Shown: piece by piece, positions 22,706-43,870 of the stretch
How the letters are laid out: each line of letters starts with the position of its first letter
How positions within the stretch are numbered: position 1 is the stretch's first letter
DNA from: Oscillospiraceae bacterium
GTDB taxonomy: Bacteria; Bacillota; Clostridia; Oscillospirales; UBA644
Direction of reading: 5' to 3'
NCBI GenBank assembly: GCA_902783255.1
Contig: CACZQB010000052.1
Coordinates: 41,389 to 105,388 of the forward strand
Length of the DNA stretch: 64,000 bases
Notes under the pieces: model-generated
The model's database searches: none
Seen by the model: only the letters and a program-made list of their open reading frames with translations
Told to the model about the DNA's origin: nothing
Position numbers and translations under genes: made by a program

Positions 22706-22740
22706 TTGCATTTTTATTCCAAATATTGTATAATAATTCA
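22706..22740 (+). promoter_or_regulatory. arg operon promoter (TTGCAT-17-TATAAT) overlapped by two tandem ARG boxes (ArgR/AhrC operator)
   Basis: -35 at 22706-22711 and -10 at 22729-22734. Box 1 TGCATTTTTATTCC (22707-22720) matches the core consensus TGAATWWWWATTCA at 12/14. Box 2 TGTATAATAATTCA (22727-22740) matches at 13/14. The boxes start 20 nt apart. Confidence 0.65.
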
Positions 22741-22782
22741 TATTTGTTTGCAAAACGATTATTATATACAGGAGATAGGAAC

Positions 22783-24015
22783 ATGGGTAATCTGAATATC
22801 ACAAAAGAAATAAAAAAAGTGGTTCTCGCCTATTCCGGCGGACTTGACACCTCTATTATTATTCCCTGGCTGAAAGAAAATTTCAACAACTGCGAAGTAA
22901 TAGCAGTTGCCGCCGATGTGGGACAGGGCGGAGAACTTGACGGTCTTCGCGAAAAAGCGATAAAAACAGGCGCGTCCAAAATATATATTGAAGATCTCGT
23001 TGATGAGTTCGTAGACGATTATATTTTTCCGACTTTGAAAGCCTCTGCGGTTTACGAAAACAAATATCTTCTGGGCACATCGTTCGCACGCCCTATAATC
23101 GCTAAACGGATCGTTGAAATCGCCGTAAAGGAAGGCGCAGACGCGATCGCTCACGGCTGCACGGGCAAGGGCAACGATCAGGTCAGGTTTGAGCTTGCAA
23201 TAAAGGCGTTCGCTCCCGACATGCCGATAATTGCGCCGTGGAGGATCTGGAATATCAAATCCCGCGACGAAGAGATCGATTATGCGGAAGCTCATAACAT
23301 TCCTCTCAGGATAAGCAGAGAAACAAATTATTCAAAAGATATGAATCTCTGGCATCTTTCACACGAAGGTCTTGATCTTGAAGATCCTGCAAACGAGCCC
23401 GATTACGATAAGATCCTTGAACTCGGCGTTTCTCCGGAAAAAGCGCCCGATACACCGTCGTATGTTACCATAGGCTTTGAAAAAGGCGTTCCCGTATCTG
23501 TTGACGGCGTAAAAATGAAAGGTTCGGATATCATCAGAAAGCTCAACAAGCTTGGCGGCGAAAACGGCATAGGCATTGCAGATCTCGTTGAAAACCGTCT
23601 TGTCGGTATGAAATCAAGGGGCGTTTACGAAACTCCGGGCGGAACGATCCTTTATCAGGCACATGATATTCTCGAAACACTCTGCCTGGACAGAGATACG
23701 CTTCATTTCAAACAGCATGCAGCTCTGAAATTTGCAGAGCTTGTTTATTTCGGACAGTGGTTCACTCCGCTTCGCGAAGCGCTTTCCGCTTTTGTGGATG
23801 AAACGCAGAAAACGGTGACAGGCGAGGTCAAGCTCAAACTTTACAAAGGCAATATCATAAATGCGGGAGTAACTTCTCCGAACTCTCTTTACGATGAGGA
23901 TATCGCCACATTCAGTGAAGATGAGGTATACAATCAGGCGGACAGCGCAGGCTTTATCAATCTTTTCGGTCTGCCTATAAAAGTAAAAGCAAAACACGAA
24001 CAGAAAAACAGATAA
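22783..24015 (+). CDS. argG: Argininosuccinate synthase
   Basis: [10 protein letters not shown]-loop-like motif, with [13 protein letters not shown] and ENR.VG.KSRG.YE. Start at MGNLNI (RBS caggagat); the track start at 22726 lies inside the -10 box. Confidence 0.95.
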
Positions 24016-24027
24016 TCGGAGGCGGCA

Positions 24028-24297
24028 ATGAACGCAGTAATTACCGTTACGGGTAAAGACACGGTTGGTATAATTGCAAAGGTCAGCAACGAATGCTTTA
24101 AATATAACGCAAACATTCTTGACATAACGCAAAAAGTTTTCGGCGGAATGTTTGTTATGACGATGCTTATTTCCGTTGACGAGCTGAATATCAAATTCGC
24201 GGATTTCGTTGACATAATGAACGACCTTGCTAAAAAAGAACACCTTGTTATCCACACAATGCATGAATCGATCTTCGACGCAATGCATAACATCTGA
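24028..24297 (+). CDS. ACT domain protein (UPF0237 family)
   Basis: 89 aa. [20 protein letters not shown] is the classic ACT opening. RBS ggagg. Begins 12 nt after argG. Confidence 0.85.
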
Positions 24298-24370
24298 ATT
24301 ATACCGCGGCGTTTTCATGCGTTTGTATGGGAATGCCGCTTCAGGTTATTTTCTAATTATTGGAGACAAA

Positions 24371-25738
24371 ATGCTGAACGAAAGTAAAATTCTTGAAACA
24401 ATAAATATGATAACGCAGGAGCATCTTGATATCAGGACCGTCACGATGGGTATCTCGCTTCATTCCTGCGTTGACAGCGACACAAAGAAGTGTTGTGCAA
24501 GAATATATGATAAAATAACAAAAAAAGCCGAAAATCTTGTTGCAGCGGGAGAAAGCATCGAAAAAGAACTCGGTATTCCCATAATTAACAAACGTATTTC
24601 GGTAACGCCGATATCTCTTATTGCTGCGGCCGCGGCGGGTGACGATGAGAATTTTGACTGTTCTCCGTTCGCCGAAACGCTGCAAAAAGCTGCGGATACA
24701 TGCGGCGTGAATTTTATAGGCGGTTTTTCCGCGCTGGTTCAGAAGGGGTTTGCCGTCAGTGACAAAGCGCTTATAAAATCGATTCCGTCAGCGCTTGCGG
24801 CTACAAAAAACGTCTGTTCTTCGGTAAACGTCGCCTCTACAAAAGCGGGAATAAACATGAACGCCGTTGCAATGATGGGCAAAACAATAAAACAGCTTGC
24901 ATATCTTACACGTGAAAACGATTCGATCGGCTGCGCAAAACTTGTTGTATTTGCCAATGTTCCCGAAGATAACCCGTTCATGGCAGGCGCATTTCACGGC
25001 TCAGGCGAAGGCGAATGTATGATAAATGTCGGCGTTTCGGGTCCCGGCGTTGTAAAAAGGGCTCTCGAAAAATGCGACGGCGATCTTTCGGAAGTCGCAG
25101 AAACAATAAAAAAGACTGCTTTTAAGATCACAAGAATGGGTCAGCTTGTTGCGGCGCAAGCTTCAACAAAGCTCGGCGTTCCGTTCGGCATCGTCGATCT
25201 GTCCCTTGCGCCAACGCCGGCAATAGGCGACTCTGTAGCCCACATCCTTGAAGAAATGGGACTTGAAAGCTGCGGGGCATGCGGAACAACAGCTGCTCTT
25301 GCGCTTCTGAATGATGCGGTAAAAAAAGGCGGCGTAATGGCGTCGTCACACGTAGGCGGTCTTTCAGGGGCATTCATACCCGTTTCGGAAGATGCAGGCA
25401 TGATATCAGCTGCAAAAAGCGGAGCGCTTACAATAGAAAAACTTGAGGCAATGACTGCGGTATGCTCTGTCGGACTTGACATGATAGCGGTTCCCGGAGA
25501 CACGCCCGATGAGGTCATTTCCGCTCTGATCGCGGATGAGGCTGCGATAGGCGTTGTAAATTCCAAAACCACTGCAGTCCGCGTGATACCGGCATACGGC
25601 AAAACGGTAGGCGATACGGTTTCGTTCGGAGGATTGCTGGGAGAGGCTCCGGTAATGAAGATCAGCAGTTTTTCTCCCGCTAAATTCATATCCCGCGGCG
25701 GACGTATCCCCGCACCGATACAAAGTCTTAAAAACTGA
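24371..25738 (+). CDS. UPF0210 / DUF711 (PFL-like) family protein
   Basis: Starts [30 protein letters not shown] (RBS ggaga), a conserved UPF0210 opening. The canonical partner of the preceding ACT protein. Confidence 0.85.
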
Positions 25739-25751
25739 AAAGGAAACAGCA

Positions 25752-27128
25752 ATGAAACTCTGGTCAGGAAGATTTTCAAAAGACGTTGACGGTCGAGTAA
25801 ACGATTTCAATTCATCCGTATCATTTGACAAACGTCTTTACAAACAGGATATAGAGGGCAGTATCGCGCATTCTCAGATGCTTTTCGAATGCGGGATAAT
25901 AACCGACGAAGACAGAAAAGCAATACAGAGCGGACTGAAAAGCATTCTTGATGATGTGGAATCGGGAAAACTTGATTTTTCTTCCGAAGCGGAAGATATT
26001 CATATGAATATCGAAACGATACTTACCGATCGTATAGGCGACGCCGGTAAGCGTCTTCACACCGCAAGATCACGAAACGATCAGGTCGCGCTTGATATAC
26101 GCCTTTATATGCGCAGCGAAACAGACGATATTTCCGAAGAACTTAAAAAGCTTATATCCGCCATTGTAAAGATCGCTGAAAAAACGACCGACTGGGTAAT
26201 GCCGTCTTATACTCATCTTCAGCGCGCGCAGCCTGTTTCGTTTGCTCACTATATAATGGCTTATGCGCAGATGTTTCTTCGTGACAGACAGCGTCTTGCA
26301 GACTGCAGAAAGCGTCTTAACCTGTGTCCGCTCGGCGCAGGCGCTCTGGCAACAACAACATATCCGATCGACAGATATATGACCGCGCAGCTTCTCGGGT
26401 TCGACGGTATTTGCGAAAACAGTATGGATGCTGTTTCAGACCGCGATTTTCTCATTGAATTCTGTTCAGACTGCGCAATGATCATGATGCATCTCTCGCG
26501 CTTTTGCGAGGAAATTATATTATGGTGTTCTTCTGAATTCAGGTTTATTTCGCTCGATGACGCATTCTCTACCGGTTCATCGATAATGCCGCAAAAAAAG
26601 AATCCCGATGTGGCTGAACTTTGCAGAGGCAAAACAGGCAGAGTTTACGGCAGTCTGATAACTCTGCTGACCGTTATGAAATCTCTTCCTCTCGCATATA
26701 ATAAAGATATGCAGGAAGATAAGGAGGCGGTTTTTGATTGCTGCGATACCGTAAAAATGTGCCTGAGCGTTTTTACTCCGATGTTTGAGACTGCGACCGT
26801 CAACAGAGAAAATCTGAGAGCGGCTGCATCTAAAGGTTTTATAAACGCAACGGACTGCGCGGATTACCTTGTCAGAAAAGGACTTCCGTTCCGTGACGCA
26901 TATAAGGCTGTCGGAAGGGCGGTAATGTATTGCGAAAAGACCGGAAAGGATCTTGAATCCCTCACGGTAGAAGAATACCGTAAATTTTCGCCTCTTTTCG
27001 ATTCGGATATATATTCCGCAATAAATCTTGAAAACTGTATGCTCAACAGAAAAGCGGCAGGCGGTCCGTCTCCGGAATCGGTAAAGATCCAGATAGAAAA
27101 CCTTAAAAAGGCGAACGAACTTGTATAA
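25752..27128 (+). CDS. argH: Argininosuccinate lyase
   Basis: MKLWSGRF start, TSRNDQV-like ARSRNDQV, and the GSSIMPQKKNPD fumarate-lyase signature. Confidence 0.95.
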   Translation: MKLWSGRFSKDVDGRVNDFNSSVSFDKRLYKQDIEGSIAHSQMLFECGIITDEDRKAIQSGLKSILDDVESGKLDFSSEAEDIHMNIETILTDRIGDAGKRLHTARSRNDQVALDIRLYMRSETDDISEELKKLISAIVKIAEKTTDWVMPSYTHLQRAQPVSFAHYIMAYAQMFLRDRQRLADCRKRLNLCPLGAGALATTTYPIDRYMTAQLLGFDGICENSMDAVSDRDFLIEFCSDCAMIMMHLSRFCEEIILWCSSEFRFISLDDAFSTGSSIMPQKKNPDVAELCRGKTGRVYGSLITLLTVMKSLPLAYNKDMQEDKEAVFDCCDTVKMCLSVFTPMFETATVNRENLRAAASKGFINATDCADYLVRKGLPFRDAYKAVGRAVMYCEKTGKDLESLTVEEYRKFSPLFDSDIYSAINLENCMLNRKAAGGPSPESVKIQIENLKKANELV

Positions 27129-27158
27129 TCAATACAGACCCGAAAGGAATAATCCCGG

Positions 27159-28205
27159 ATGAATACAAACGTTTATAACGTATCAATAATCGGCGCGTCA
27201 GGTTATGCCGGAGCAGAGCTTGTAAGAATACTTCTTTCTCACCCGAACGCAAAACTCGCCGCTTTGAGTTCTGTTTCTTATACCGGACAGAGCATAGCCG
27301 AGCTTTATCCTTCATACAGAAATATATGCGAGCAGATCCTTGTTTCCGAAGAAGATGCGATTGAAAAGGGCGATGTTGTTTTCGCATCTCTTCCCCACGG
27401 TCTTTCTCAGGAAATTGCTCTTGAATGTGACAGAAAAGGTAAGCTTTTTATCGATCTAGGTGCGGATTTCCGTCTTGACGACGGCGAAATATATACCGAA
27501 TGGTATGGCAAAGACTATATTTACCCGGAACTTCACGCCAAGTCGGTATACGGACTTTCGGAAATATACCGTGACAAAATAAAAAAAGCAACAATAATCG
27601 GAAACCCCGGCTGTTATCCCACATCCGTCGCTCTCGCATTGTATCCCGCCATAAAAAACAATCTTGTAAAGGCGGATGACTTTATAGTGGATTCCAAAAG
27701 CGGCGTTACGGGCGCAGGAAAAGGTCTGACGCAAAAAACTCATTTCCCGGAATGCAATGAAGCATTCTCACCTTACAATATAGGCAAACATCGCCATACG
27801 CCGGAGATAGAGCAGACTCTTTCGCACTTTGCAGGCAATTCTGTGCGCATAACTTTCGTTCCGCATCTTCTTCCCGTCAACCGCGGCATTATATCTACCG
27901 TATATGCTGAAAATATCAGCGGACTGACGGTTGAAGACATCCGCGCAATATACGCAAGAACATATGAAGACGAATATTTTATCAGAGTTCTGCCGTCAGG
28001 CGAGGTCGCAAATCTTAAAAATGTGAGAATGAGTAATTTCTGCGATATTTCAATACATGAAGACAGACATACGTCTAAACTGATTATAGTTTCCGCCATA
28101 GACAATATGGTCAAGGGCGCGGCGGGTCAGGCTGTTCAGAATATGAATATCGCTCTTGGTATAAATGAAAGGGCGGGAATTGATTTTGTTCCCCCTGCAA
28201 TATGA
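27159..28205 (+). CDS. argC: N-acetyl-gamma-glutamyl-phosphate reductase
   Basis: IIGASGYAG NAD-binding motif, active site GNPGCYPT, and SAIDNMVKGAAGQAVQNMN. Confidence 0.95.
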   Translation: MNTNVYNVSIIGASGYAGAELVRILLSHPNAKLAALSSVSYTGQSIAELYPSYRNICEQILVSEEDAIEKGDVVFASLPHGLSQEIALECDRKGKLFIDLGADFRLDDGEIYTEWYGKDYIYPELHAKSVYGLSEIYRDKIKKATIIGNPGCYPTSVALALYPAIKNNLVKADDFIVDSKSGVTGAGKGLTQKTHFPECNEAFSPYNIGKHRHTPEIEQTLSHFAGNSVRITFVPHLLPVNRGIISTVYAENISGLTVEDIRAIYARTYEDEYFIRVLPSGEVANLKNVRMSNFCDISIHEDRHTSKLIIVSAIDNMVKGAAGQAVQNMNIALGINERAGIDFVPPAI

Positions 28206-28232
28206 AGCAATATCATTCGGAAGGAAAAACAT

Positions 28233-29447
28233 ATGAATTTTCTTGAAAACGGATCAGTTACGACTCCCAAAGGCTTTACCGCATCAGGTTATCACTGCGG
28301 TATAAGAAAAAGTCAGAAGAAAAAAGATATTTCTCTTATTTTCTGCGAAAAAAGATGCGCTGCGGCGGCAGTCTACACAAGAAATCTTGTAAAGGGAGCC
28401 CCCTTAACAGTAACAAAAAACAATATTTCCGACGGATACGCGCAGGCTGTTATCTGCAACAGCGGAAATGCCAATACATGCAATGCCGACGGAGTGGAAA
28501 AAGCTGAACTGACATGCGAAAAGCTTGCCGAAAAGCTCGCAATTTCCAAGAAGGACATCATAATCGGCTCTACGGGCGTTATAGGCCAGCCGATAAATAT
28601 CGACGCAATCCTTTCAGGAATAGATCCGCTTATTGCAACGCTTTCAAAAGATGGATCAGGGGCTGCCGAAGGCATAATGACTACCGATACCGTAAAAAAA
28701 TCTTTTGCCGTCGAATTTGAAATTGACGGCAGGAAGGCGTATATCGGCGGTATAGCAAAAGGATCGGGCATGATCAATCCTCATATGGCAACAATGCTGT
28801 GCTTTGTAACTACCGATATTGCGATAACCCCGGAACTTCTCCACGAAGCTCTTCTGTATGCGGTAAAAAAATCTCTTAATATGGTTAATATAGACGGCGA
28901 CACAAGCACTAACGATATGATGTCTATAATGGCTTCAGGTCTTGCCGGAAACAAAACAATAACAGAAAAAAATGCCGAGTATGATATTTTTGCAGAGGCG
29001 CTTCTTGAGCTTTCGATAAAGGTTGCTAAAGCTATAGCGAAAGACGGCGAGGGGGCGACAAAACTTATCATAGCGGATGTTCGCAACTGCAAAGATGAAG
29101 ATACAGCTGAAATACTTGCCGATTCCGTCGTTTCATCTTCGCTTGTAAAGGCGGCTATGTTCGGCGCAGACGCAAACTGGGGCAGGGTTTTGTGCGCACT
29201 CGGTTATGCGGGAGAGGATATAGACATTACAAAGATAAATGTTGCGTTTATTTCCGCAGCGGGCAAAATCGATGTCTGCAAAAACGGCGCCGGTATACCT
29301 TTTTCGGAGGAAATCGCAAAAACAATACTTTCCTGCGACGAGATCACCATAGATATCGATTTGCAGGACGGCAATGCTTCCGCTCAGGGATACGGATGCG
29401 ATCTTACATATGACTATGTTAAAATAAACGGAGACTACCGTACATGA
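28233..29447 (+). CDS. argJ: Bifunctional ornithine acetyltransferase / N-acetylglutamate synthase
   Basis: PKGF.A.G..CGI.K, autoprocessing site ATMLCFVTTD, and the C-terminus DLTYDYVKINGDYRT. Confidence 0.95.
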   Translation: MNFLENGSVTTPKGFTASGYHCGIRKSQKKKDISLIFCEKRCAAAAVYTRNLVKGAPLTVTKNNISDGYAQAVICNSGNANTCNADGVEKAELTCEKLAEKLAISKKDIIIGSTGVIGQPINIDAILSGIDPLIATLSKDGSGAAEGIMTTDTVKKSFAVEFEIDGRKAYIGGIAKGSGMINPHMATMLCFVTTDIAITPELLHEALLYAVKKSLNMVNIDGDTSTNDMMSIMASGLAGNKTITEKNAEYDIFAEALLELSIKVAKAIAKDGEGATKLIIADVRNCKDEDTAEILADSVVSSSLVKAAMFGADANWGRVLCALGYAGEDIDITKINVAFISAAGKIDVCKNGAGIPFSEEIAKTILSCDEITIDIDLQDGNASAQGYGCDLTYDYVKINGDYRT

Positions 29448-30310
29448 ATAAATACGAAGAAAAAGCGTTTATCATTTCCGAAGCTCTGCCGTATATACAG
29501 CGGTTCAGCGGAAAAACGATCGTCGTCAAATACGGCGGCAACGCAATGATAAACGATATTATGAAAAACGCCGTTATTTCAGACTGTATCCTTCTTTCTC
29601 TTGTAGGCATCAATACTGTCCTCGTTCACGGAGGCGGTCCTGAAATTACCGCAATGCTCGGCAAGCTCGGAAAAGAAACGCGTTTTATAAACGGTCTCAG
29701 ATACACCGATGACGAAACGATGGATATAGTTCAGATGTCGCTTGCGGGAAAAGTCAACAAAGACCTTGTCACGCTTATCGCGAGAGCAGGCGGCAGGGCA
29801 GTGGGTCTTTGCGGACTTGACAGTGAACTTATCTGCGCAAAAAAACTCGAAGACGGAGAAAATGATTACGGATATGTCGGAGAGATCACTTCGGTAAACA
29901 CAAAAATAATCGAAGATAATATCCGTGCAGGCTATATCCCCGTTATTGCTACTGTAGCAGGCGGCGAGGACGGTCATGCTTATAATGTAAACGCCGATAC
30001 TGCCGCCGCGTATATCGCAGGGGCGCTCGGCGCCGAAAAGCTGATACTTCTTACAGATACAAAAGGCGTTCTTGCAGATAAGGACGATGAAACATCTCTT
30101 ATTCCGAAAATAGCCATGGATGAGATCGACGGTTATATCGGGCAGGGAATTATCGTAGGCGGAATGATCCCGAAACTTCGCTGCTGCGAAACCGCAATAA
30201 AAAAAGGCGTTCGCTCGGCTCATATTATAGACGGAAGAGTAGCGCACTCTATACTGATAGAAATGTTTACTGCCGGCGGTATAGGAACAATGATAGACAA
30301 TACGCTTTAA
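29444..30310 (+). CDS. argB: Acetylglutamate kinase
   Basis: VVKYGGNAM, VLVHGGGPEI and NVNADTAA motifs. ATGA overlap with argJ. Confidence 0.95.
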   Translation: MNKYEEKAFIISEALPYIQRFSGKTIVVKYGGNAMINDIMKNAVISDCILLSLVGINTVLVHGGGPEITAMLGKLGKETRFINGLRYTDDETMDIVQMSLAGKVNKDLVTLIARAGGRAVGLCGLDSELICAKKLEDGENDYGYVGEITSVNTKIIEDNIRAGYIPVIATVAGGEDGHAYNVNADTAAAYIAGALGAEKLILLTDTKGVLADKDDETSLIPKIAMDEIDGYIGQGIIVGGMIPKLRCCETAIKKGVRSAHIIDGRVAHSILIEMFTAGGIGTMIDNTL

Positions 30311-30320
30311 GAGGGTTGAA

Positions 30321-31508
30321 ATGAGCACGTTTAACGATATAAAAAAACAGGATAACGATTTTATAGCAAATACATACGCGCGTTTTGACGTTGCGTTCGT
30401 TTCGGGTAAAAATGCGCGGTTCATTGATGAGAGCGGGAAGGAATACATCGATTTCGGCAGCGGAATAGGCACGAACAGCCTCGGTATTGCAAATGATGCG
30501 TGGGCTGAGGCAGTATCATTGCAGGCGTCACGCATGCAGCACTGTTCAAATCTGTATTATAACCCGGTAACGGCAAAACTTGCCGAAAAGCTGTGCAGGA
30601 CTACAGGAATGAAAAAGGTGTTTTTCGCCAATTCAGGCGCGGAGGCAAACGAATGCGGCATAAAAACGGCGAGAAAATACAGCTTTGATAAATACGGCGC
30701 CGATGCTTGCAGAAATAAGATAATAACACTTAAAAATTCATTTCACGGCAGAACCGTGACCACGCTTTCCGCTACGGGACAGGATGTTTTTCATAACTAT
30801 TTCTTTCCTTTTACCGACGGTTTCCTTTTTTGCGCACCGGATCTGGACGAGATAAAAAATACCGTAATGTCAGACGGTCATGTATGTGCCGTTATGTTCG
30901 AAACTATTCAGGGCGAAGGCGGCGTTCTGCCCCTCGATGACGGTTTTTTGAGAGACCTTTCGGCGTTTGCCGCAAAAGAAGATATTCTTCTTATAGTTGA
31001 CGAAATACAGACCGGCATAGCAAGAACAGGCAGGTTCCTTTCTTATATGCACAGCGGTATTTCGCCTGATATCGTTACTCTCGCAAAAGGCTTGGGCGGC
31101 GGACTTCCCATAGGAGCCTGTCTTTTTAACGAAAAAACAGAGAAAGTCCTTTCATTCGGTGACCACGGCTCGACCTTTGGCGGAAATCCTGTTTCATGCG
31201 CAGGGGCATGTGTTGTTCTTGATAAAGTAACTTCCGACGGCTTTTGCGGAGAGGTAGAGAAAAAAGGAGAATATATAAAAGCGAAACTTTTCGAAAAGCT
31301 TGGCGATGAAATAACGGAAATTCGCGGCAGAGGACTGATGCTCGGCATTGATTTTAAATCAAAACCAGCAAAACAGATCGTTGCCGAAGCACTGAAAAAA
31401 GGTGTTGTAATGCTTACCGCAAAACAGTCGGTCCGTCTTCTTCCTCCGCTTACCATAACATACGAAGATATTGACGAAGGCATAGAAAAACTTGCTTCCA
31501 TATTCTGA
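30321..31508 (+). CDS. argD: Acetylornithine aminotransferase (class III PLP)
   Basis: FANSGAEANE, DEIQTGIARTG, TLAKGLGGG (PLP Lys) and TFGGNP. Confidence 0.93.
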   Translation: MSTFNDIKKQDNDFIANTYARFDVAFVSGKNARFIDESGKEYIDFGSGIGTNSLGIANDAWAEAVSLQASRMQHCSNLYYNPVTAKLAEKLCRTTGMKKVFFANSGAEANECGIKTARKYSFDKYGADACRNKIITLKNSFHGRTVTTLSATGQDVFHNYFFPFTDGFLFCAPDLDEIKNTVMSDGHVCAVMFETIQGEGGVLPLDDGFLRDLSAFAAKEDILLIVDEIQTGIARTGRFLSYMHSGISPDIVTLAKGLGGGLPIGACLFNEKTEKVLSFGDHGSTFGGNPVSCAGACVVLDKVTSDGFCGEVEKKGEYIKAKLFEKLGDEITEIRGRGLMLGIDFKSKPAKQIVAEALKKGVVMLTAKQSVRLLPPLTITYEDIDEGIEKLASIF

Positions 31509-31524
31509 TAAAAGGAGAAAAACA

Positions 31525-32439
31525 ATGAAATCGCTTTTAACAATGCAGCAGCTCTCACAGAAAGAGCTTTTTGATATTCTCGATACAGCAACCGAACTGA
31601 AAGCCGAACTGAAAGCCGGAAAAAAACATGAAAAACGCCTTGACGGAATGACACTCGGCATGATATTTCAAAAAAGTTCTACCCGAACACGCGTTTCATT
31701 TGAAGTAGGCATGCAGCAGCTTGGCGGATATCCGCTTTTTTTGTCGGGCAACGATCTGCAGCTGGGCAGAGGAGAATCGATCAAGGATACTGCGCGTGTT
31801 TTCGGCAGATATCTTGACGGCATAATGATCCGTACATTCAAACAGAGCGATGTTGAGGATCTTGCGAAGTATTCCGGTCTGCCTATAATCAACGGTCTGA
31901 CCGATTACTGCCACCCGTGCCAGGTACTTGCTGATCTTCTCACAATAAAAGAGCATAAAGGCGGGTTTAACGGGCTAAAAGCGTGTTATATCGGCGACGG
32001 CAACAATATGGCAAACAGCCTTACCGTAGGATGTCTTCTTTCCGGTATGAGTTTTTCTCTCGCAACCCCCGAAGAGTATAAGCCGTGCGATAATATAATG
32101 AGATTCGGTGAGTCGTACGGCGGCAAATTCTCATGGTCGACCGATATTTTTGAAGCAGCGGATAAAGCCGATGTAATTTTTACGGATGTCTGGGCGAGCA
32201 TGGGACAGGAAGGCGAGGCGGAAATACGCAGAAAGGCTTTCGCCGGCTATTGTGTAGACAAAAAACTGCTTGGCGTTGCGAACAGCGGATGTATGCTGCA
32301 GCATTGTCTTCCCGCGCATAAAGGTGAAGAAATTGCCGAGGATGTGTTTGAAGAACACGCAAACGAGATATTCGACGAGGCAGAAAACAGGCTTCATGCT
32401 CAGAAAGCCGTAATGTGGCTTTGCATGCATAAAAACTGA
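31525..32439 (+). CDS. argF: Ornithine carbamoyltransferase
   Basis: STRTRVSFE carbamoyl-phosphate motif, with HPCQ, DVWASMG and HCLPA. Start at MKSLLTM (RBS aaaggagaa). Confidence 0.93.
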   Translation: MKSLLTMQQLSQKELFDILDTATELKAELKAGKKHEKRLDGMTLGMIFQKSSTRTRVSFEVGMQQLGGYPLFLSGNDLQLGRGESIKDTARVFGRYLDGIMIRTFKQSDVEDLAKYSGLPIINGLTDYCHPCQVLADLLTIKEHKGGFNGLKACYIGDGNNMANSLTVGCLLSGMSFSLATPEEYKPCDNIMRFGESYGGKFSWSTDIFEAADKADVIFTDVWASMGQEGEAEIRRKAFAGYCVDKKLLGVANSGCMLQHCLPAHKGEEIAEDVFEEHANEIFDEAENRLHAQKAVMWLCMHKN

Positions 32440-35713: not shown

Positions 35714-36184
35714 TTACGGTTCATCTGCGCTGAGGTCATCGCTGTCTGTAAGCAGATCTTCGTTTGAAACGGCATTGCCGCCTATTTTATCGCATGTGAT
35801 ATTCCCCGCGCATCTTGCATTGCCTATTATGTTTTGACATTCAATGTTGCCGCCGCATGAAACGTTGCCGAGTATGTTTTCGCATTCGATACTGCCGCAG
35901 CATTCTGCCGCTTCAAGAGTTTGTCCGATAAGATCAACGGAAAATTCATATTGCCTGTAAGCTTCTTTAGCGTCTATTATTTCATGACCGCGAAAAGCGG
36001 CTATGCGAAGTTTTCCGTCATCTGCCCATGGAATGGCCGCGCATGTTTCACAGGATTTACTGTCGCACTTATCTTTCTGACTTTCTTTTATAATCATGTC
36101 GTTCAGAATCAGTGCGGCTTCTATTTCTGTGTAAATTCCTTTTTTTATGTGATCAAAAAGCAAAAGGATATCGGCAGTATACAT
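35714..36184 (-). CDS. Hypothetical protein with C-terminal Gly-Asn/Cys ladder repeats
   Basis: Start at MYTADI (RBS gggagg 6 nt upstream). The C-terminal tract GSIECENILGNVSCGGNIECQNIIGNARCAGNITCDKIGGNAVS has a regular 7-8 residue periodicity. Acidic tail. Confidence 0.65.
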   Translation of the reverse strand: MYTADILLLFDHIKKGIYTEIEAALILNDMIIKESQKDKCDSKSCETCAAIPWADDGKLRIAAFRGHEIIDAKEAYRQYEFSVDLIGQTLEAAECCGSIECENILGNVSCGGNIECQNIIGNARCAGNITCDKIGGNAVSNEDLLTDSDDLSADEP

Positions 36185-36259
36185 GCAATACCTCCCGTTG
36201 AAATGCATAGGTTCCGTTCACAAAAAGACGGTGATCGCAAATTGTTTGCATATGAAAGA

Positions 36260-36389: not shown

Positions 36390-36417
36390 TTGACAAACTC
36401 TTAATTTGTGTTATTAT
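36390..36417 (+). promoter_or_regulatory. Sigma-A-type promoter for potABC
   Basis: TTGACA (36390-36395), 16 nt spacer, TATTAT (36412-36417) with TGt extended -10. An 85-nt leader with two short hairpins follows. Confidence 0.5.
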
Positions 36418-36502
36418 TATACTCAAGTATTCCGTGAAGTCGTTATCGACGGAAAAAAGTGGGATACAGAGACCGTTCGGGGCTCTGAAGGGAGATAGAT
36501 AG

Positions 36503-37618
36503 ATGGCAGAAAGCATCATTCGACTGGAAAACATTTCAGTCGCACTTGGTGGAGAACAGATTTTAAAGAATTTAAATCTTAATATCAACGACAAGGAATT
36601 TGTAACATTGCTCGGTCCAAGCGGATGCGGGAAGACTACCACTTTGCGCATTATCGGCGGTTTTCAGCGTCAGGACAGCGGCAATGTTTTCTTTGCAAAT
36701 GAGATAATTAACGATTTGCCTCCTTACAAACGCAATGTAAATACGGTTTTTCAGAAATATGCGCTTTTTCCCCATCTTAACGTATTCGGAAACATCGCTT
36801 ACGGACTGCATATGCAGAAGGTTCCGAAAGAAGAAAGAAAAAAGCGTAAACAGGAAATAAAAAAGAGTGTTGAAGAAATGCTTGCGCTTGTAAATCTTCG
36901 CGGTTTTGAAAACAGAGACATAATGTCTTTATCCGGCGGTCAGCAGCAGCGTGTTGCGATAGCGCGAGCGCTTATCAACAAGCCTCACGTTCTGCTGCTT
37001 GACGAACCTCTCGGAGCTTTGGACCTTAAGCTTCGTAAGGAAATGCAGATAGAGCTTAAAAATATACAGATCAAAACGGGCATCACATTTATATACGTCA
37101 CTCATGACCAGGAAGAGGCGCTGACGATGTCCGATACAGTCGTTGTAATGAAAGGCGGGGAGATTCAGCAGATAGGAACTCCTCAGGATATTTACAACGA
37201 GCCGAAAAACGCTTTTGTCGCCGATTTTATCGGTGAAAGCAATATTCTTCCGGGCGTTATGCTCGAAGACTACCGCGTTGAAATCTGCGGCAGACTTTTT
37301 GAGTGCGTAGACAAGGGGTTTGAAGACAACGAAAAGGTCGGTGTGGTCGTTCGTCCCGAAGATATTGAGATCAAATCCGAAAGCGAAGGATTTTTGACAG
37401 GCGTTGTAAAATCCTGCGTATTTAAGGGTGTTCATTATGAAATGACAATAGAACAGATCAACTACCCTTACACCTGGCTTGTTCATTCAACAGATGCCGC
37501 CGAAATCGGCGAAACCGTGGGAATGTGCTTTTATCCCAACGATATCCATGTAATGAAGGGCGAGGATATAGACTACAGTTATTTCAGCAATGTGCCTGAG
37601 GAGGATACGGAAGAATGA
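36503..37618 (+). CDS. potA: Spermidine/putrescine ABC transporter ATP-binding protein
   Basis: Walker [10 protein letters not shown], signature [15 protein letters not shown], Walker B LLLDEPL, C-terminal TOBE-like domain, and PotA-type FQ.YALFPH. Confidence 0.92.
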
Positions 37619-38736
37619 AACCGTTTCCGAAATTCAGGCTGAAGCGCAGCGTTTTTGCGTATCCGTATGTCGTATTTGCGATCATTTTTCTTGTATCGCC
37701 GCTTGTTCTCGTCATTTTCTACTCACTTACGCGCGAGATCGATAATTACTCCGTTAATAAAAGCTCTGTCAATTCGCCCGAGGTGATCATTGATAACCTT
37801 GATTTCATAGGTTACGAAGAAGATCCCGTTCTTTCTCAGGTAGGCACATATTATTACGACGGCGAAACTCTTACCGTTATAAATTACAGAGAACGACATC
37901 CCGAAACATACAGGATCTTTTTCGAAAATGAAAAGATCTCGCTTATTGAGGAATATGAAGGAGATACGCTTATCGATGCGGATCTGAAAGATGTCAAATT
38001 CCTCAACAGACTGAAAGGTGTCTATTTTACGATAGACAATTTCGTTAAATTCTTTAATACGGGCGACTATATGAAGGTCTTTCTGAGGTCGCTCTATATA
38101 GCGTTTATGTCAACGCTTTTCTGCCTTATCATAGGCTTTCCCACGGCATATGTCCTTTCCAAAATGAAAGAAAGAACAAGAAATATCGTTTCGGTAATGT
38201 TTCTTTTGCCGATGTGGATCAACTTTCTGCTCAGAACTTATGCATGGAGAACACTGATTGAAAAAACCGGTATCATAAATACTGTTCTTGAGTCTGTAGG
38301 TCTTCCCGCACAGAATCTTATGTATACACAGGGCGCCGTCATTCTTGTTATGGTTTATGACTTTCTGCCGTTTATGATACTGCCTATTTACAATACTCTT
38401 ATTAAGATAGACAGATCTGTTATCGAGGCGTCATACGACCTCGGCGCAAATCATTACCGCACTCTTTTCAGAGTGATCTTTCCTCTTGCTCTTCCGGGTA
38501 TTTCAAGCGGCGTTACAATGACGTTCGTTCCTGCGATAACGGCATTTGCCATTTCAAAAATTATGGGCGGCACACAGTGCGCTACGATAGGTGAAACAAT
38601 AGAACGCGAATTCAGCACGGATATGTGGTTTGGCTCGGCAATGTCAGTTATAATAATGGTGCTTATGCTTGCATCCATGTTCCTTATTGCCGGCGGAGAC
38701 AACGATGGCGAAAATATCGGAGGTGGCTTGCTGTGA
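37615..38736 (+). CDS. potB: Spermidine/putrescine ABC permease with about 95-aa extracytoplasmic insertion
   Basis: ATGA overlap with potA. Permease core with the EAA-type loop ([18 protein letters not shown]). At 373 aa it is longer than the roughly 275-285 aa I recall for PotB; the extra segment follows TM1. Confidence 0.88.
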
Positions 38737-39602
38737 CGGATATTATCTATATAGCTCTGATCGCCATTCCGGTCCTGATCGCGCTTGTTCTCGTATTCGG
38801 AAGTCCGAAGCGAAAGATCACAAAGGTGTCGCGCATAATATATCTTACCGCGATTTTTGTGTTCACGTATCTGCCGATATTCGTGCTTATCGTTTTTTCT
38901 TTCAACTCCGGCCGTTCTACCGGCGTATGGGAAGGTTTTTCTCTGAAATGGTATGAAGAGCTTATAAACGATGCTCGCATTCAGGCGGCGTTGCTTACAA
39001 CAATAATCGTCGCTCTTTCCTCCGCCGTTATATCAACCGTTTTCGGCACGGTATCGGCGATCGGTATTTTCTATATGAAGAAAATGCCGAAAAACATAAT
39101 AATGAATATAACGAATATTCCCATACTCAACGCGGATATCATCACCGGCGTATCCCTCCTTCTTCTTTACAATATATTGGGTATAGACCTTGGATACGCT
39201 TCGCTGATAATAGCGCATATTTCCTTTAATATCCCGTATGTTATACTTTCCGTTATGCCGAAACTCAAACAAATGGATAACAATATCTATGAGGCGGCTC
39301 TCGATCTCGGCGCAACGCCCACAAAGGCGCTTGTAAACGTTATCGTTCCTCAGATAATGCCCGGCATCGTCTCGGGTTTTCTGCTTGCGCTCACGATGTC
39401 CATGGATGATTTCGTAATAAGCCTTTTCACTAGCGGGCCTGTTGTATCAACGCTTTCTCTTGAAATATATTCAATGACAAAACGCGGTATCACGCCCGAA
39501 ATAAACGCACTTTCAACGATAATTTTTGTGATCGTTATTGCCGTTCTCCTGATTTCCAATCTGAAAAATCCACAGGCAGACAAAAAAAAGCGCAGAGCGT
39601 AA
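38733..39602 (+). CDS. potC: Spermidine/putrescine ABC permease
   Basis: GTG start in a GTGA overlap with the potB stop. EAA loop YEAALDLGATPTKALVNVI.P, and PotC-like SFN....W.GFSLKWY. Confidence 0.85.
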   Translation: MTDIIYIALIAIPVLIALVLVFGSPKRKITKVSRIIYLTAIFVFTYLPIFVLIVFSFNSGRSTGVWEGFSLKWYEELINDARIQAALLTTIIVALSSAVISTVFGTVSAIGIFYMKKMPKNIIMNITNIPILNADIITGVSLLLLYNILGIDLGYASLIIAHISFNIPYVILSVMPKLKQMDNNIYEAALDLGATPTKALVNVIVPQIMPGIVSGFLLALTMSMDDFVISLFTSGPVVSTLSLEIYSMTKRGITPEINALSTIIFVIVIAVLLISNLKNPQADKKKRRA

Positions 39603-39611
39603 TTATGATTT

Positions 39612-39630
39612 TTTGTGCAAAATGCACAAA
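39612..39630 (+). terminator. Short stem-loop after potC (weak terminator or protein-binding palindrome)
   Basis: TTTGTGCA-aaa-TGCACAAA: 8-bp stem, 3-nt loop. The T-rich stretch comes only about 10 nt later. Confidence 0.3.
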
Positions 39631-39695
39631 TATGTTTCGTGTTTTTACGACAAATTGCATGCAACGGAAAAAAGTTTTAACTTTCCCGTAAGTTG

Positions 39696-39724
39696 TTGAA
39701 ATATCCGAAAAAAAGTGATATAAT
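39696..39724 (+). promoter_or_regulatory. Sigma-A-type promoter for the ABC exporter / small partner module
   Basis: TTGAAA (39696-39701), 17 nt spacer, TATAAT (39719-39724) with TGa extended -10. Confidence 0.55.
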
Positions 39725-39770
39725 CTCGGTAATTTCGTTTTAAAAACGCTGAAGCCTCAAGGAGTCCATT

Positions 39771-42125
39771 ATGGCTGAAGAAAAAAAGAAGATGACATTC
39801 GAAGAGGTTCTCGAATGTCTTCCGTGTAAAAACAAAGAAGTTCCTGCGAAATTCGCCGGTATTGTCAGATCCGTTACCGAAAGTGACGAAACGGTTTATT
39901 TCTACGTTATTTCGGATGTTGTTCTCGGCAGCAGATACGGCGAAAGTTTTGCCGCAATTACCGACAGACAGCTTATCTCGTACGATGAGATGCGCGAAGA
40001 AAAGCTGATGCGGTTCAATATTAGCGAAATTGAAAAAGCAGATGTCAAGAGAATGTACGGCAACGCTCTTTTCCGTATAAAGAAAGACGGAAAACTGCTC
40101 GAGCTTAACAAATGCTCTTACTCAGTAACCGAATATTTCGATAATATCGCGCAGTATATAAACGATCTCAATGAAGGTAAGGAAAAAACCGCGCTTATAG
40201 AAGGCGTTCATGAGTCATACGAAAAACGCCAGCTTTACTGTCCGAAATGCGGGGCGCGCCTTCCTTATAAAAATGCTCCGTGTATAAAATGCGCCGATAA
40301 AAAGAAAATACTCGGCCGTATTCTCGTATACGTAAAACCTCACATGGTCCTTCTGATCGTTGCGTTGCTTATGGCAATGATCACGACCGTTACAAACCTT
40401 ATACCTCCGCTTCTTACCGCAAGACTTGTAGACCAGACTCTTGTCAATGTTTCCGATCTTGTCAAAGGAACTCCTGAAATGGACGCCAGGATCAACGAGC
40501 TTTTCCTTATCGTCCTTTTTCTCTTTATTATCAATACTTTTCAGAATATTGTCGGCGCTTTCCGCGGATATATACTCAGAATTGCGTCAGAGCGCATAAC
40601 GAACACCCTTAAAACCGAGCTTTACACAAAAGCGCAGTATCTTCCGATCAAATATTACGATAAAACTTCAACAGGTTCCGTAATTTCGCGTATAAACGGC
40701 GACACGGCAAACCTGAACGGCTTTATAATGCGTATTTCGCAGGAAGTTCTCACTCAGGCGATACAGCTTGTGGGCATAGTTGTCGTTATGGTTTCAATGA
40801 ACCCCGTGCTGTCTATTCTTTCTCTGCTCCCCATTCCGATAGTAGTTATAAGCGCAAAAATATTCTCGAAATTTATTCATCCGTATTACTACCGCATATG
40901 GAAACGCGGCGCGAAGATCAACTCGATCCTTGCGGATACTCTTCCGGGAATAAAAGTAGTAAAAGCGTTCACCTCCGAAGAAAAATCGATCAACAACTTT
41001 ACCTCAACCAATAAAGACCTTATAAACGAAAACCTGAAGACGGCGCGTATTTCCTCTATATACAACAGTGCAACCGGACTCGTTATGATGATGGGCAGCC
41101 TTGTTATCTGGGGACTCGGCGGATATATGGTTCTGACAAAAGCGTCCTTCCTCGGTTCCTCCGTTCTTACGGCCGGCGGACTTGTTGCTTTCATAAACTA
41201 CATGTGGATGTTCTATAACCCTGTTCAGTTCTTTGTAAGCCTTAACGAAACATTTATCAGCGCATTCACATCCGCGGAACGTGTTTTTGAGATACTTGAC
41301 GCTGAACCCGAAGAGGATTTTGGCAAGGGAAATATTCCTGAAGGAGGAATAAAAGGCAAAATCGAATTCAGAAATGTTTCTTTCAGCTACGAAAAGGGCA
41401 AAAAGATACTTTCAAATGTCAATTTTACGATCGAACCCGGCGAAATAGTCGGCATTGTAGGCACAACAGGCTCAGGGAAATCCACGATCGTCAACCTTCT
41501 TATGCGCTATTACGAAAATCATGAAGGCGAAATATATATCGACGACACAAACATCAAGGATATCGATTTACAGTTTTACCGTTCATCTGTCGGCTACGTT
41601 CTTCAGGAACCGCTGCTTTTCAAAGACACTGTCTTCAGAAATATAGCACACTCTGATCCTACAACGCCGGTTGAAGATGTTATTTATGCCGCACAGGTCG
41701 CAAATGCACATAAATTCATCACCAAACTTCCGGACAGCTACGATACAATGCTTGGAGAGCGCGGCGTTGGACTGTCAGGCGGCGAACGCCAGCGTATTTC
41801 TATCGCCCGTGCTGTTCTTAAAGACCCTGCGATCCTTATTCTTGACGAAGCGACCGCTTCTGTTGACTCTGAAACGGAGAGCATCATTCAGGAAGCTATT
41901 GAACGAATTATAAACGGTAGAACAACGATTATGATCGCACACAGACTTTCCACTCTTAAAAAAGCGGATAAAATAATCGTTGTTGAAGACGGAAAGATTT
42001 CCGAAATGGGCTCGCATAACGAGCTTATGGAAAAACAGGGCAGATATTACAAACTTGTCAAAATACAGTCGCTTGCGAGAGAGCTTTCCGACGAAGGCGG
42101 TATTTTTGAAGGCGACGGCAAATGA
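39771..42125 (+). CDS. ABC exporter (fused TMD-NBD) with about 190-aa N-terminal cytoplasmic extension containing a zinc ribbon
   Basis: 784 aa. Extension includes CPKCG...CIKC. It is followed by a six-helix exporter TMD, Walker A GTTGSGKST, signature LSGGERQRISIARA and Walker B ILILDEATASVD. Own promoter at 39696-39724. Confidence 0.9.
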   Translation: MAEEKKKMTFEEVLECLPCKNKEVPAKFAGIVRSVTESDETVYFYVISDVVLGSRYGESFAAITDRQLISYDEMREEKLMRFNISEIEKADVKRMYGNALFRIKKDGKLLELNKCSYSVTEYFDNIAQYINDLNEGKEKTALIEGVHESYEKRQLYCPKCGARLPYKNAPCIKCADKKKILGRILVYVKPHMVLLIVALLMAMITTVTNLIPPLLTARLVDQTLVNVSDLVKGTPEMDARINELFLIVLFLFIINTFQNIVGAFRGYILRIASERITNTLKTELYTKAQYLPIKYYDKTSTGSVISRINGDTANLNGFIMRISQEVLTQAIQLVGIVVVMVSMNPVLSILSLLPIPIVVISAKIFSKFIHPYYYRIWKRGAKINSILADTLPGIKVVKAFTSEEKSINNFTSTNKDLINENLKTARISSIYNSATGLVMMMGSLVIWGLGGYMVLTKASFLGSSVLTAGGLVAFINYMWMFYNPVQFFVSLNETFISAFTSAERVFEILDAEPEEDFGKGNIPEGGIKGKIEFRNVSFSYEKGKKILSNVNFTIEPGEIVGIVGTTGSGKSTIVNLLMRYYENHEGEIYIDDTNIKDIDLQFYRSSVGYVLQEPLLFKDTVFRNIAHSDPTTPVEDVIYAAQVANAHKFITKLPDSYDTMLGERGVGLSGGERQRISIARAVLKDPAILILDEATASVDSETESIIQEAIERIINGRTTIMIAHRLSTLKKADKIIVVEDGKISEMGSHNELMEKQGRYYKLVKIQSLARELSDEGGIFEGDGK

Positions 42126-42146
42126 TTATTTCAGATCGGTGATTTT

Positions 42147-42668
42147 ATGGATAATTCAGTCAGATTTTTCAGCGGAAAAAACATTCATATCGCTCCTGGA
42201 AGCATGGGCGTTTTGCTTAAAGTTACCATGCCCGACGGAACGGTATACGAAGATGTTGAACCACGCAGGTATTTCCCGATTTCGGATATTTACAAAAATA
42301 TCAGCATAGTTCGTGTTGAAGAGGACGAGCGCGGAAAGGATAAGATAACGGAATATCTTATTATAAAGGATATTGACAACCTCGATGAGGAATCACGCAA
42401 AGCACTGCTCGATTCTTTGAATAAATACTACATGATCCCCAAAATACTCGATATTTACGACCAGAAGAACGTTTACGGCATCCTTCAGTGGAAAGTGCTT
42501 ACAGACCGCGGAGAATTTGCATTCGATATCCGCGATATCTATTCAAGCATCAAGCAGCTGAACAGCGGAAAAATACTTATTATCGATTCATACGACAACC
42601 GTTACGAAATAGACGATATAAGCAAGCTTTCCAAAAAAGGACAGAAACTTCTTCTGGGATATCTGTAA
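42147..42668 (+). CDS. Small soluble partner protein (resembles DUF1854, from memory)
   Basis: 173-aa ORF starting 21 nt after the ABC exporter, with RBS ggtga. No TM helix or signal peptide. My recollection is that DUF1854 proteins characteristically follow ABC ATPase/exporter genes; this is unverified. Confidence 0.7.
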   Translation: MDNSVRFFSGKNIHIAPGSMGVLLKVTMPDGTVYEDVEPRRYFPISDIYKNISIVRVEEDERGKDKITEYLIIKDIDNLDEESRKALLDSLNKYYMIPKILDIYDQKNVYGILQWKVLTDRGEFAFDIRDIYSSIKQLNSGKILIIDSYDNRYEIDDISKLSKKGQKLLLGYL

Positions 42669-42732
42669 TCTTATATTTGAAAACCGACGCATAGCGGTTA
42701 ATATATTTATTTCAAAGGAGAAAAGAAAGAAA

Positions 42733-43776
42733 TTGAAAAAAATTGTTTTGGGACTTATTACCGCGGTAATGCTTGTAGCATTGCTTTCTTCCTGTAATTC
42801 GTCAGGCTCTGCTCAGCTCAGAGTTTACAACTGGCAGGAATATATGGATCCTGAAGTAATTGAAATGTTTACCAAAGAAACAGGTATCGAGGTTTTATAT
42901 AACGTATTTGATACCAACGAAAACATGTACAACAAAATAAAGAATATGAAAGGATATTCTTACGATGTTATTTTCCCGTCCGACTATATGGTCAAGAAAA
43001 TGGCGGACGAGGGCATGCTTGCCGAAATCAACTTCGATAATATCCCTAATTATAAGTATATCAACGACAGCTATAAGGGAATGGGTTATGATAAAAAGAA
43101 TCTCTTTTCCGTTCCTTACATAGGCGGCACGGTCTGCATAGCATATAACCCCAAGTATGTTGACGAAAGCGAAGTTAATTCTTGGGATGTTCTCTGGAAT
43201 GAAAAATACGCCGGCGAAATATTCATGATGGACAGCGAACGCGACTCTATTGCCGTTGCTCTTCTTCGCCTCGGATATTCGATCAACACAAAGAATATGG
43301 ATGAACTTAACGAAGCAAAAGATCTTCTCATTCAGCAAAAACCCCTCGTTCTTGCTTATACGTCCGATGATGTCAAGGAAAAAATGGCAAAAGAAGAGGG
43401 CTGGCTTGCCGTTATGTGGTCCTGCGATATAACATTTGTTCGTGACCTTAACGAAGACATTAAATTTGTCATTCCCGAACAGGGCACCAATATCTGGTGG
43501 GATACCGCATGCATTCTTGAAAACGCCGAACACAAAGAAGAGGCTGAAAAATTTATAGATTTCCTTTGCCGCCCCGACATCGCGCTTATGAACGCTGAAT
43601 ACCTTGAAAGCTCAACGCCGAATACGGCAGCGTTTGAAGAACTCGACGAAGAGATCAAAAACGACCCCGTTATTTATCCTTCCGATGAAATGCTCGCAAA
43701 ATGCGAAGTATTTGAAGATCTTTCAGACTATATGTCAACCTATACTTCTATCTGGAATTCGGTTATCAATTCTTAG
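42733..43776 (+). CDS. potD: Spermidine/putrescine ABC transporter substrate-binding lipoprotein
   Basis: TTG start with RBS aaaggagaa. Lipobox LLSSC. PotD-type LRVYNWQEYMDPEV...F...TGI.V.Y..FD.NE. Confidence 0.9.
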   Translation: MKKIVLGLITAVMLVALLSSCNSSGSAQLRVYNWQEYMDPEVIEMFTKETGIEVLYNVFDTNENMYNKIKNMKGYSYDVIFPSDYMVKKMADEGMLAEINFDNIPNYKYINDSYKGMGYDKKNLFSVPYIGGTVCIAYNPKYVDESEVNSWDVLWNEKYAGEIFMMDSERDSIAVALLRLGYSINTKNMDELNEAKDLLIQQKPLVLAYTSDDVKEKMAKEEGWLAVMWSCDITFVRDLNEDIKFVIPEQGTNIWWDTACILENAEHKEEAEKFIDFLCRPDIALMNAEYLESSTPNTAAFEELDEEIKNDPVIYPSDEMLAKCEVFEDLSDYMSTYTSIWNSVINS

Positions 43777-43789: not shown

Positions 43790-43822
43790 AAACTGCCGGG
43801 TATGCGTCCGGCAGTTTTTTTA
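43790..43822 (+). terminator. Rho-independent terminator after potD
   Basis: Stem AACTGCCGG / CCGGCAGTT followed by TTTTT. Confidence 0.75.
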
Positions 43823-43870
43823 TGTCTGAAAATCGTAAATTTCTTTTATCAAAAAGTCACAATCTTGTTG

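Follow-up and report, generated by a model that had tools for sequence, protein, structure and literature searches.

Why does a polyamine importer operon hold an exporter in its middle? In the window (the whole analysed stretch of 64,000 nucleotides from contig CACZQB010000052.1 of an Oscillospiraceae bacterium), the genes potA, potB and potC of a PotABCD importer are followed by a gene for an ATP-binding cassette (ABC) exporter and a gene for a DUF1854 protein, and only then by potD. The two systems may act together on polyamines, or the block may be held together by the way in which it is transcribed. We favour the second answer, at a probability of roughly 55%: a two-gene module was inserted long ago and potD became transcriptionally hitched to it, without a biochemical link between the module and polyamines. 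The elements of the locus are as follows (window coordinates, strand, feature).

36390-36417, +, promoter-like site upstream of potA, TTGACA-16-TATTAT with TG (11/12 match, extended -10)
36503-37618, +, potA, polyamine importer ATPase of 371 amino acids (aa), PF00005 and TOBE_2
37615-38736, +, potB, permease of 373 aa, ATGA overlap with potA, BPD_transp_1 at residues 173-357
38733-39602, +, potC, permease of 289 aa from the GTG at 38733, GTGA overlap with the potB stop, BPD_transp_1
39612-39630, +, weak AT-rich hairpin after potC, no U-tract, not conserved as a terminator
39696-39724, +, internal module promoter, TTGAAA-17-TATAAT, TG extended -10
39771-42125, +, ABC exporter half-transporter of 784 aa, PF00664 and PF00005
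42147-42668, +, DUF1854 accessory protein of 173 aa, PF08909, starting 21 nt past the exporter stop
42677-42704, +, weak promoter-like site before potD, TTGAAA-16-TAATAT (9/12 match)
42682-42699, +, palindrome AACCGACGCATAGCGGTT before potD, invariant in subclade A, candidate operator or RNA hairpin
42733-43776, +, potD, lipoprotein polyamine-binding protein of 347 aa, TTG start, lipoprotein signal LLSSC, SBP_bac_8/6
43790-43824, +, intrinsic terminator closing the six-gene unit, 12-bp stem with 6 GC pairs, then a T-run

The gene order is potA-potB-potC, a 168-bp gap, the exporter gene, the DUF1854 gene, a gap of 64 bp, potD and the terminator. As 3130 bp lie between the potC stop and the potD start, the four pot genes are not contiguous in the window. 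The GTG start of potC has a GGAGG 8 nt upstream, and its homologues align from residue 1 of that start. An earlier sequence-only reading of this DNA had described the coupling of potA, potB and potC through ATGA and GTGA overlaps and, between potC and potD, a stem-loop, a promoter, an exporter gene and a 173-aa gene; every one of these elements was found where it had been placed. What that reading called a “173-aa soluble protein” holds as an open reading frame and can now be specified as a DUF1854 (PF08909) protein.

How widespread is this layout, and which order came first? Scanning one genome per species with the DUF1854 alignment returned at least 428 relatives (contig stretches), the best 80 loci of which were taken for analysis with 10 kb of flanks inspected; a further scan of metagenomes gave 8 loci. 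The exporter and DUF1854 genes are adjacent and on the same strand in 80/80 species genomes, which answers in the affirmative the question, raised by the sequence-only reading, of whether the two genes travel together. The layout potABC-exporter-DUF1854-potD occurs in all 11 genomes whose DUF1854 protein is at least 57% identical to that of the window and in none of the 69 in which this identity is 49% or lower. The DUF1854 proteins of the pot clade also share an 8-residue insertion, and from this insertion together with the confinement of the layout we infer a single origin. Around the non-pot modules the neighbours are variable, and no pot or other polyamine gene lies within 10 kb in 69/69 cases. 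Among the best 80 of the relatives, the pot-clade module is the single copy in its genome.

The nearest PotD outgroups (54-58% identity) keep potABCD contiguous in L086 (Feifania hominis) and in L087, and potC next to potD in L088, with a potC-potD spacing of 15-33 bp. Since the genes are contiguous there, the split arrangement is probably the derived one; the assertion that potABCD is normally contiguous holds for these outgroups. The GC content is uniform, with no shift across the module, and neither direct nor inverted repeats flank it in the window. The event therefore appears to be old, and a recent mobile-element insertion, considered as another origin of the layout, is ruled out on the same two grounds.

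Within the pot clade, the surroundings of the block are as follows.

Lineage (subclade) A, including the window: L005-L012, upstream Tex/Amidohydro_2, downstream PEPCK
Lineage (subclade) B: L013-L015 and L100-L102, upstream SpoIIE/DUF975, downstream beta-helix/HrcA/GrpE
Lineage L097: upstream MFS, downstream purA
Lineage L098: upstream the contig ends, downstream LRP1-like
Lineage L099: upstream the contig ends, downstream Lactamase_B
Lineage C: L085/L094, upstream RluD-like, downstream PHP/integrase

The potABC genes lie upstream of the module in A, B and L097. Lineage C, which is one species recovered from two metagenomes (L085 and L094, DNA 99.97% identical), has the order rluD-like, exporter, DUF1854, PotD (L085:6110-10128, L094:7651-11312), and potABC is absent from its 6-7 kb of upstream sequence. 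In Feifania hominis an rluD-like gene precedes potABCD, so potABC has apparently been lost from the lineage C site. The PotD of lineage C has 375 aa and ends in an acidic C-terminal tail. Exporter identity amounts to 72% between A and C vs 65-68% between A and B, and PotD identity to 59% between A and C vs 74% between A and B. Judged by these values, PotD has diverged faster than the module proteins where potABC is missing, as would be expected if its real partner is PotABC and not the exporter.

How, then, is potD transcribed? The internal module promoter and the potA promoter are the two best matches (11/12) on the + strand of the 8-kb region. Promoter-like matches as a whole stay at the level of chance (23 found vs 18.6 ± 5.4 in shuffles), and the internal promoter rises above chance because its position is conserved in every lineage examined: TTG(A/C)A(A/T)-17-TGnTAnAAT recurs at the corresponding position in subclade A, subclade B, lineage C, L097 and L099. 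The ABC gene is preceded by an extended -10 promoter of like design in 26/59 non-pot loci vs 0/59 control segments. The near-consensus promoter of the sequence-only reading is accordingly real, and it has the TG of an extended -10 in addition. The stem-loop that was noticed after potC also exists, but it does not hold as a terminator, being weak, devoid of a U-tract and lost in L008 and L010: its 48-nt region, which includes a second small hairpin, folds at -11.2 kcal/mol (z = -1.9), and the equivalent regions of these two relatives at -2.5 and -3.0 kcal/mol, respectively.

No conserved terminator was found between potC and potD. The terminator after potD is the single strong one in the block (43790-43817, -16.9 kcal/mol, z = -3.7; 0/200 shuffles fold as well). 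The gap between the DUF1854 gene and potD is 35 bp in lineage C, 49 bp in L097, about 20 bp in L098 and 41 bp in L099, and these short gaps contain no recognisable promoter. The promoter-like site before potD in the window was rightly called weak, since its -35 varies among relatives. Because a conserved potC-potD terminator is lacking, four lineages have gaps of 20-50 bp in which no promoter can be recognised and the lone strong terminator comes after potD, we consider that potD very probably depends on transcription through the module.

Such dependence would not be simply passive, since subclades A and B have each gained a conserved cis-element directly before potD. In subclade A this is the palindrome AACCG-N8-CGGTT of 18 nt with perfect arms, which lies within the spacer of the weak promoter-like site, 33 nt before potD begins. 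Its 16-nt core is identical in 15/15 subclade A loci that cover the site, with variable flanks, and the core was not found elsewhere in the window or in other loci. It scores as a 5-bp stem, and the 64-nt spacer that contains it folds at -8.6 kcal/mol (z = -1.3); the palindrome may serve as an operator or form a small hairpin in the 5' RNA. In subclade B, the DUF1854-potD interval holds an element of about 120 nt that hardly varies and forms one long imperfect hairpin (RNAalifold -63.9 kcal/mol). Its coordinates are L013:10567-10690, L014:10539-10662, L015:10534-10657, L096:203-326 and L101:2405-2530 (approximate). As the five copies are near-identical (that of L101 judged by eye, not aligned) and offer one compensatory pair, a structured RNA is not demonstrable; searched as a repeat or miniature inverted-repeat element, it occurs once per locus and at this site only among 96 loci. 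Structured RNA and miniature inverted-repeat insertion cannot be told apart here. An Rfam search of the window at 36.0-44.1 kb and of L014 at 4-12 kb returned no riboswitch or leader, and two sub-threshold small-RNA matches on the potD terminator. The sequence-only reading had suggested that potD may depend on read-through from the module; module-derived transcription is very probably correct, while purely passive read-through does not agree with the conserved elements of subclades A and B.

A binding-protein gene with its own boost in expression is familiar from malEFG, where the repetitive extragenic palindromic (REP) hairpin is an intercistronic RNA element that raises binding-protein expression. 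Our locus resembles malEFG-like operons in that the binding-protein gene receives an extra transcriptional input and, in two subclades, adjoins a conserved hairpin-forming element. The difference is that the additional promoter here is that of a foreign two-gene module situated between the permease and binding-protein genes.

We suppose the following course of events. In an ancestor of a clade of uncultured Oscillospiraceae-like Clostridia from gut and rumen, an autonomous and widespread two-gene module would have entered a canonical potABCD operon once, between potC and potD, bringing its own extended -10 promoter. The module would pair an ABC exporter of the homodimer type, which bears a PH-like domain and a zinc ribbon on the cytoplasmic side, with DUF1854. 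The outcome would be a unit of six genes served by two promoters and closed by a single terminator, in which transcription from the potA promoter can read through all six genes and the internal promoter drives the exporter, DUF1854 and potD. The transcriptional dependence of potD on the module may be enough to hold the block together, given also that the module could be lost only by a precise deletion. The module would retain the function that it has where it stands alone, and a role in polyamine transport would not be required.

Are the pot genes themselves those of an ordinary importer? Families were assigned by Pfam and NCBIfam profile matches. PotA matches PF00005 (E = 3e-34) and TOBE_2 (E = 1e-7); it reaches 355.6 bits with TIGR01187 potA, which equals the cut-off, and 541.6 with NF043075, where the cut-off is 550. 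The best NCBIfam match of PotB is PotB (190 bits, enterobacterial equivalog cut-off 348, aligned from residue 134), that of PotC is PotC (246 bits, enterobacterial equivalog cut-off 326) and that of PotD is PRK09501 PotD. Among solved structures, the relatives of PotD are S. pneumoniae PotD 4EQB (E = 4e-70), Listeria Lmo0810 4GL0 and E. coli PotD 8Y5H/1POT (E = 7e-64). In an ungapped alignment with E. coli PotD, for which we take the list of ligand residues to be that of Sugiyama/Kashiwagi 1996, W34, Y37, S83, Y85, W229, W255 and D257 are identical, E171 is replaced by D, and D168, Y293 and Q327 are replaced by S, S and F, respectively. On these matches, potABCD of the window encodes a genuine Pot-type importer, and its PotD, which keeps the aromatic and acidic ligand residues, is to be regarded as a bona fide PotD.

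With PotABCD of E. coli and S. pneumoniae, the locus shares the four components, the order A-B-C...D, a PotA with TOBE domain, two BPD_transp_1 permeases, translational coupling and a lipoprotein PotD. It differs in that potD is 3.1 kb away from potC with an unrelated, self-promoted exporter module between them, in the PotD replacements just named, in a PotB that is longer by about 100 aa, and in that its four proteins stay under the equivalog cut-offs of enterobacteria and mycoplasmas. The extra stretch of PotB (residues ~40-135) lies between the first membrane helix and the conserved permease core and has no Pfam match. It is present in all pot-clade lineages with potB (373-383 aa) and absent from the outgroup PotB (273-279 aa), which aligns to that of the window from residue 135 only. 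The TTG start of potD is found in every clade lineage (the window, L013-L015, L085, L097-L099) and in the nearest canonical outgroup L088, while the more distant outgroups L086 and L087 start with ATG.

The exporter has a PH-like region at residues ~42-134, a zinc ribbon of four cysteines at C157-C174, a six-helix transmembrane domain at 195-484 (PF00664, E = 7e-39) and a nucleotide-binding domain at 547-696 (PF00005, E = 4e-34). Its cytoplasmic N-terminal extension of 190 aa is part of the module in 80/80 loci. An AlphaFold (AF2) model of residues 1-195 reaches a predicted local distance difference test (pLDDT) score of 92 and shows seven strands followed by a long helix; its top Foldseek matches are all PH or bacterial PH domains. 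A search of solved structures with the exporter N-terminus gave no match. Across 32 homologues, C157, C160, C171 and C174 show little or no variation, pointing to a putative zinc ribbon just ahead of the first membrane helix. Because a word-indexed protein search with the N-terminal domain gave 2 matches, an exhaustive search of representatives was used instead; it found the extension in 168 representative clusters, always at the protein N-terminus.

The DUF1854 protein matches PF08909 over profile positions 1-127 of 130 (E = 2.2e-33, 115.4 bits vs a gathering threshold of 26.8), and its AF2 model (pLDDT 85) is beta-rich and two-lobed. This model had no match in the PDB by Foldseek at E <= 0.001, and the profile gave nothing significant against solved structures (best a spectrin PH domain, E = 0.2). 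As hhalign shows no relationship between DUF1854 and the exporter N-domain, an origin of the former as a detached copy of the latter is unsupported.

The next best NCBIfam matches of the exporter, after the one discussed below, are MsbA and TAP-like models (458 and 429 bits). Like half-transporters of the MsbA/TAP type, it has PF00664 and ABC_tran on one polypeptide, and it differs from them in the PH-like and Cys4 zinc ribbon extension and in the obligatory separate DUF1854 subunit. The best match is NF052233, the cyanophycin-associated ABC protein (556.9 bits, cut-off 880; residues 22-769 on model positions 13-746 of 766), and the DUF1854 protein matches the partner model NF052234 with 74 bits (cut-off 150). 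The likeness to this pair includes the two-gene architecture, the N-terminal extension and the position of DUF1854 directly downstream. The differences, besides the scores below both cut-offs, are the lack of cphA in the window, the pot neighbours, and the host, which belongs to the Clostridia here and to the Betaproteobacteria there. By size or domain content no cphA is present in the 64-kb window, where the open reading frames of at least 800 aa encode a beta-galactosidase and a CotH protein, and the 80 loci with their 10-kb flanks have no recurrent large neighbour.

What may the module do where it stands alone? In our literature search, functional data on the DUF1854-ABC family were limited to cofitness with cyanophycin-synthetase-like genes; DUF1854 or PF08909 is named in a single paper, and the papers on cyanophycin touch on the ABC gene in passing. 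Price et al. (bioRxiv 10.1101/072470) observed in Acidovorax and Cupriavidus that DUF1854 shows cofitness both with its neighbouring ABC gene and with cphA/cphA', and they proposed that the ABC/DUF1854 pair exports an amino-acid polymer (Arg/Asp). Judging from the fold and from the work of Price et al., the module may carry out ATP-driven export with DUF1854 as a cytoplasmic accessory protein.

Outside the pot clade, one neighbour alone recurs: a c-di-AMP receptor gene (PF06153, DarA/PstA-like) lies downstream of DUF1854 on the same strand at a distance of 15-194 bp in 32/67 non-pot loci, about half of the remaining Oscillospiraceae-like genomes, e.g., L038:3321-3647 and L033:2983-3306. Two loci of the same metagenome-assembled genome, L037 and L039 (JAFTKO010000043.1 and JAFTKO010000032.1), have the module and its flanks with the same order and sizes of open reading frames; this pair is either a real large duplication or an assembly or binning duplicate.

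Several observations weigh against an insertion without biochemical meaning. Exporter, DUF1854 and potD are kept together in six lineages with six different downstream flanks, and the upstream flanks differ too; gene order that persists while the flanks are reshuffled is classically read as a sign of functional coupling. Lineage C keeps potD beside the module without adjacent potABC, and its PotD is intact with the ligand residues retained. The family's only functional data point to an arginine-rich polymer, i.e., to nitrogen-rich polycations like polyamines. In addition, all members of the pot-embedded clade are metagenome-assembled genomes.

The alternative that survives best is a functional uptake/efflux pair, in which the module would export a polyamine or a polyamine- or arginine-derived polycation, co-regulated with PotABCD, and the layout would be under selection. 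We regard it as possible, and tentatively so. It can account for a six- or three-gene block that stays intact in six lineages with entirely different flanks, as well as for the survival of the trio in lineage C. Further points in its favour are that the closest named relatives of the module are the cyanophycin-associated pair with its proposed Arg/Asp polymer export, that the window has a set of clustered arginine biosynthesis genes 4 kb upstream, and that PotB of the clade gained its extracytoplasmic stretch of about 100 aa, which suggests that the Pot system was remodelled in the same clade. On the other side, the arginine cluster adjoins the pot block neither in subclade B nor in lineage C. 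The lack of polyamine genes within 10 kb in the 69 other genomes implies that a polyamine role is not a property of the family, and the single copy per genome among the best 80 looks like a relocated orthologue, not a specialised paralogue. The dependence of potD on the module promoter would explain the conservation of order without any biochemical link. The bacterial polyamine exporters that we know of (MdtJI, SapBCDF, PotE/CadB, Blt and PaeA) are not of this type, which counts against the pair as well. The sequence-only reading had offered such an uptake/efflux pair. The layout proved universal in the clade (11/11) and the module stands beside unrelated neighbours elsewhere (69/69), as fits the inheritance of a single insertion, and the idea of a pair is weakened by it; the conserved block in six contexts, the trio without adjacent potABC and the association with an arginine polymer keep a polyamine role alive.

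Taken further, the trio might itself be a polyamine or polycation system, with the DUF1854-ABC pair exporting polycations that PotD senses or recaptures, or with PotD feeding an exporter-fold transporter. This proposal seems doubtful to us.

Still less probable is that two or three separate transcription units just happen to lie side by side: the hairpin would end potABC, the module would be its own operon, and potD would have its own promoter with the palindrome as operator. A hairpin and a strong promoter do lie between potC and the module, the subclade A palindrome sits exactly in the spacer of the promoter-like site, which is a typical operator position, and subclade B has its conserved structured leader of about 120 nt before potD. 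However, the hairpin after potC is weak, unconserved and without a U-tract, the potD site matches at 9/12 with an unconserved -35, four lineages have gaps of 20-50 bp with neither promoter nor element, no terminator follows DUF1854, and the palindrome forms a stem of 5 bp in a spacer that folds at z = -1.3.

The least probable reading makes PotD the working partner of an exporter-type transporter (an exporter-fold importer, or an extracellular acceptor or sensor), with the exporter-DUF1854-PotD trio as the unit: the trio is the sole part invariant in six lineages, lineage C has the order rluD-like, exporter, DUF1854, PotD, in which 35 bp separate the last two and potABC is absent from the 6-7 kb upstream, the DUF1854-potD gap goes down to about 20 bp, and exporter-fold ABC importers exist (IrtAB, YbtPQ and Rv1819c); however, a binding-protein-dependent transporter of exporter fold is, to our knowledge, without precedent, no recurrent binding-protein gene lies near the 69 non-pot modules, so the family generally needs none, the absence of potABC goes with a faster, not a slower, evolution of PotD, lineage C is just one species whose potABC could sit elsewhere in the genome, and PotD keeps the standard ligand residues and resembles the PotD of classical importers.

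The arrangement matters beyond this locus whichever kind of link holds. If the link is transcriptional only, a foreign module has been fixed inside an operon since the downstream gene depends on the module promoter, which is useful for studies of operon evolution and is a warning for annotation by guilt of association. If the link is biochemical, polyamines or arginine-derived polycations would become concrete, testable candidate substrates of the PH-domain ABC exporter/DUF1854 family, which occurs widely among Oscillospiraceae-like Clostridia of gut and rumen and also among Betaproteobacteria; polyamine traffic of gut Clostridia is relevant to host physiology. Should the trio be the true unit, the function of a DUF family with at least 428 contig stretches in the species-genome collection would become accessible for the first time. 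On the evidence of synteny, the layout is a good lead to the function of DUF1854-ABC proteins, and a polyamine link is possible. The split pot operon and its conservation, built from known families, appear to be undescribed; a literature search on a split pot operon found nothing.

Three other features of the window deserve mention. A complete arginine biosynthesis cluster (argG, DUF711, argH, argC, argJ, argB, argD and argF) occupies 22726-32439, with the DUF711 gene between argG and argH, and is located 4 kb upstream of potA. At 18192-21326, a protein of 1044 aa, unrelated to the pot locus, combines three lamin-tail domains, an Fn3-associated/CHB_HEX_C region and a CotH kinase domain. Divergent from potA, on the - strand at 35714-36208, a gene encodes a 164-aa protein without Pfam match, rich in Cys, Gly and Asn in short repeats (GNVSCGGNIECQNIIGNARCAGNITC), which is kept at the same position in subclade A.

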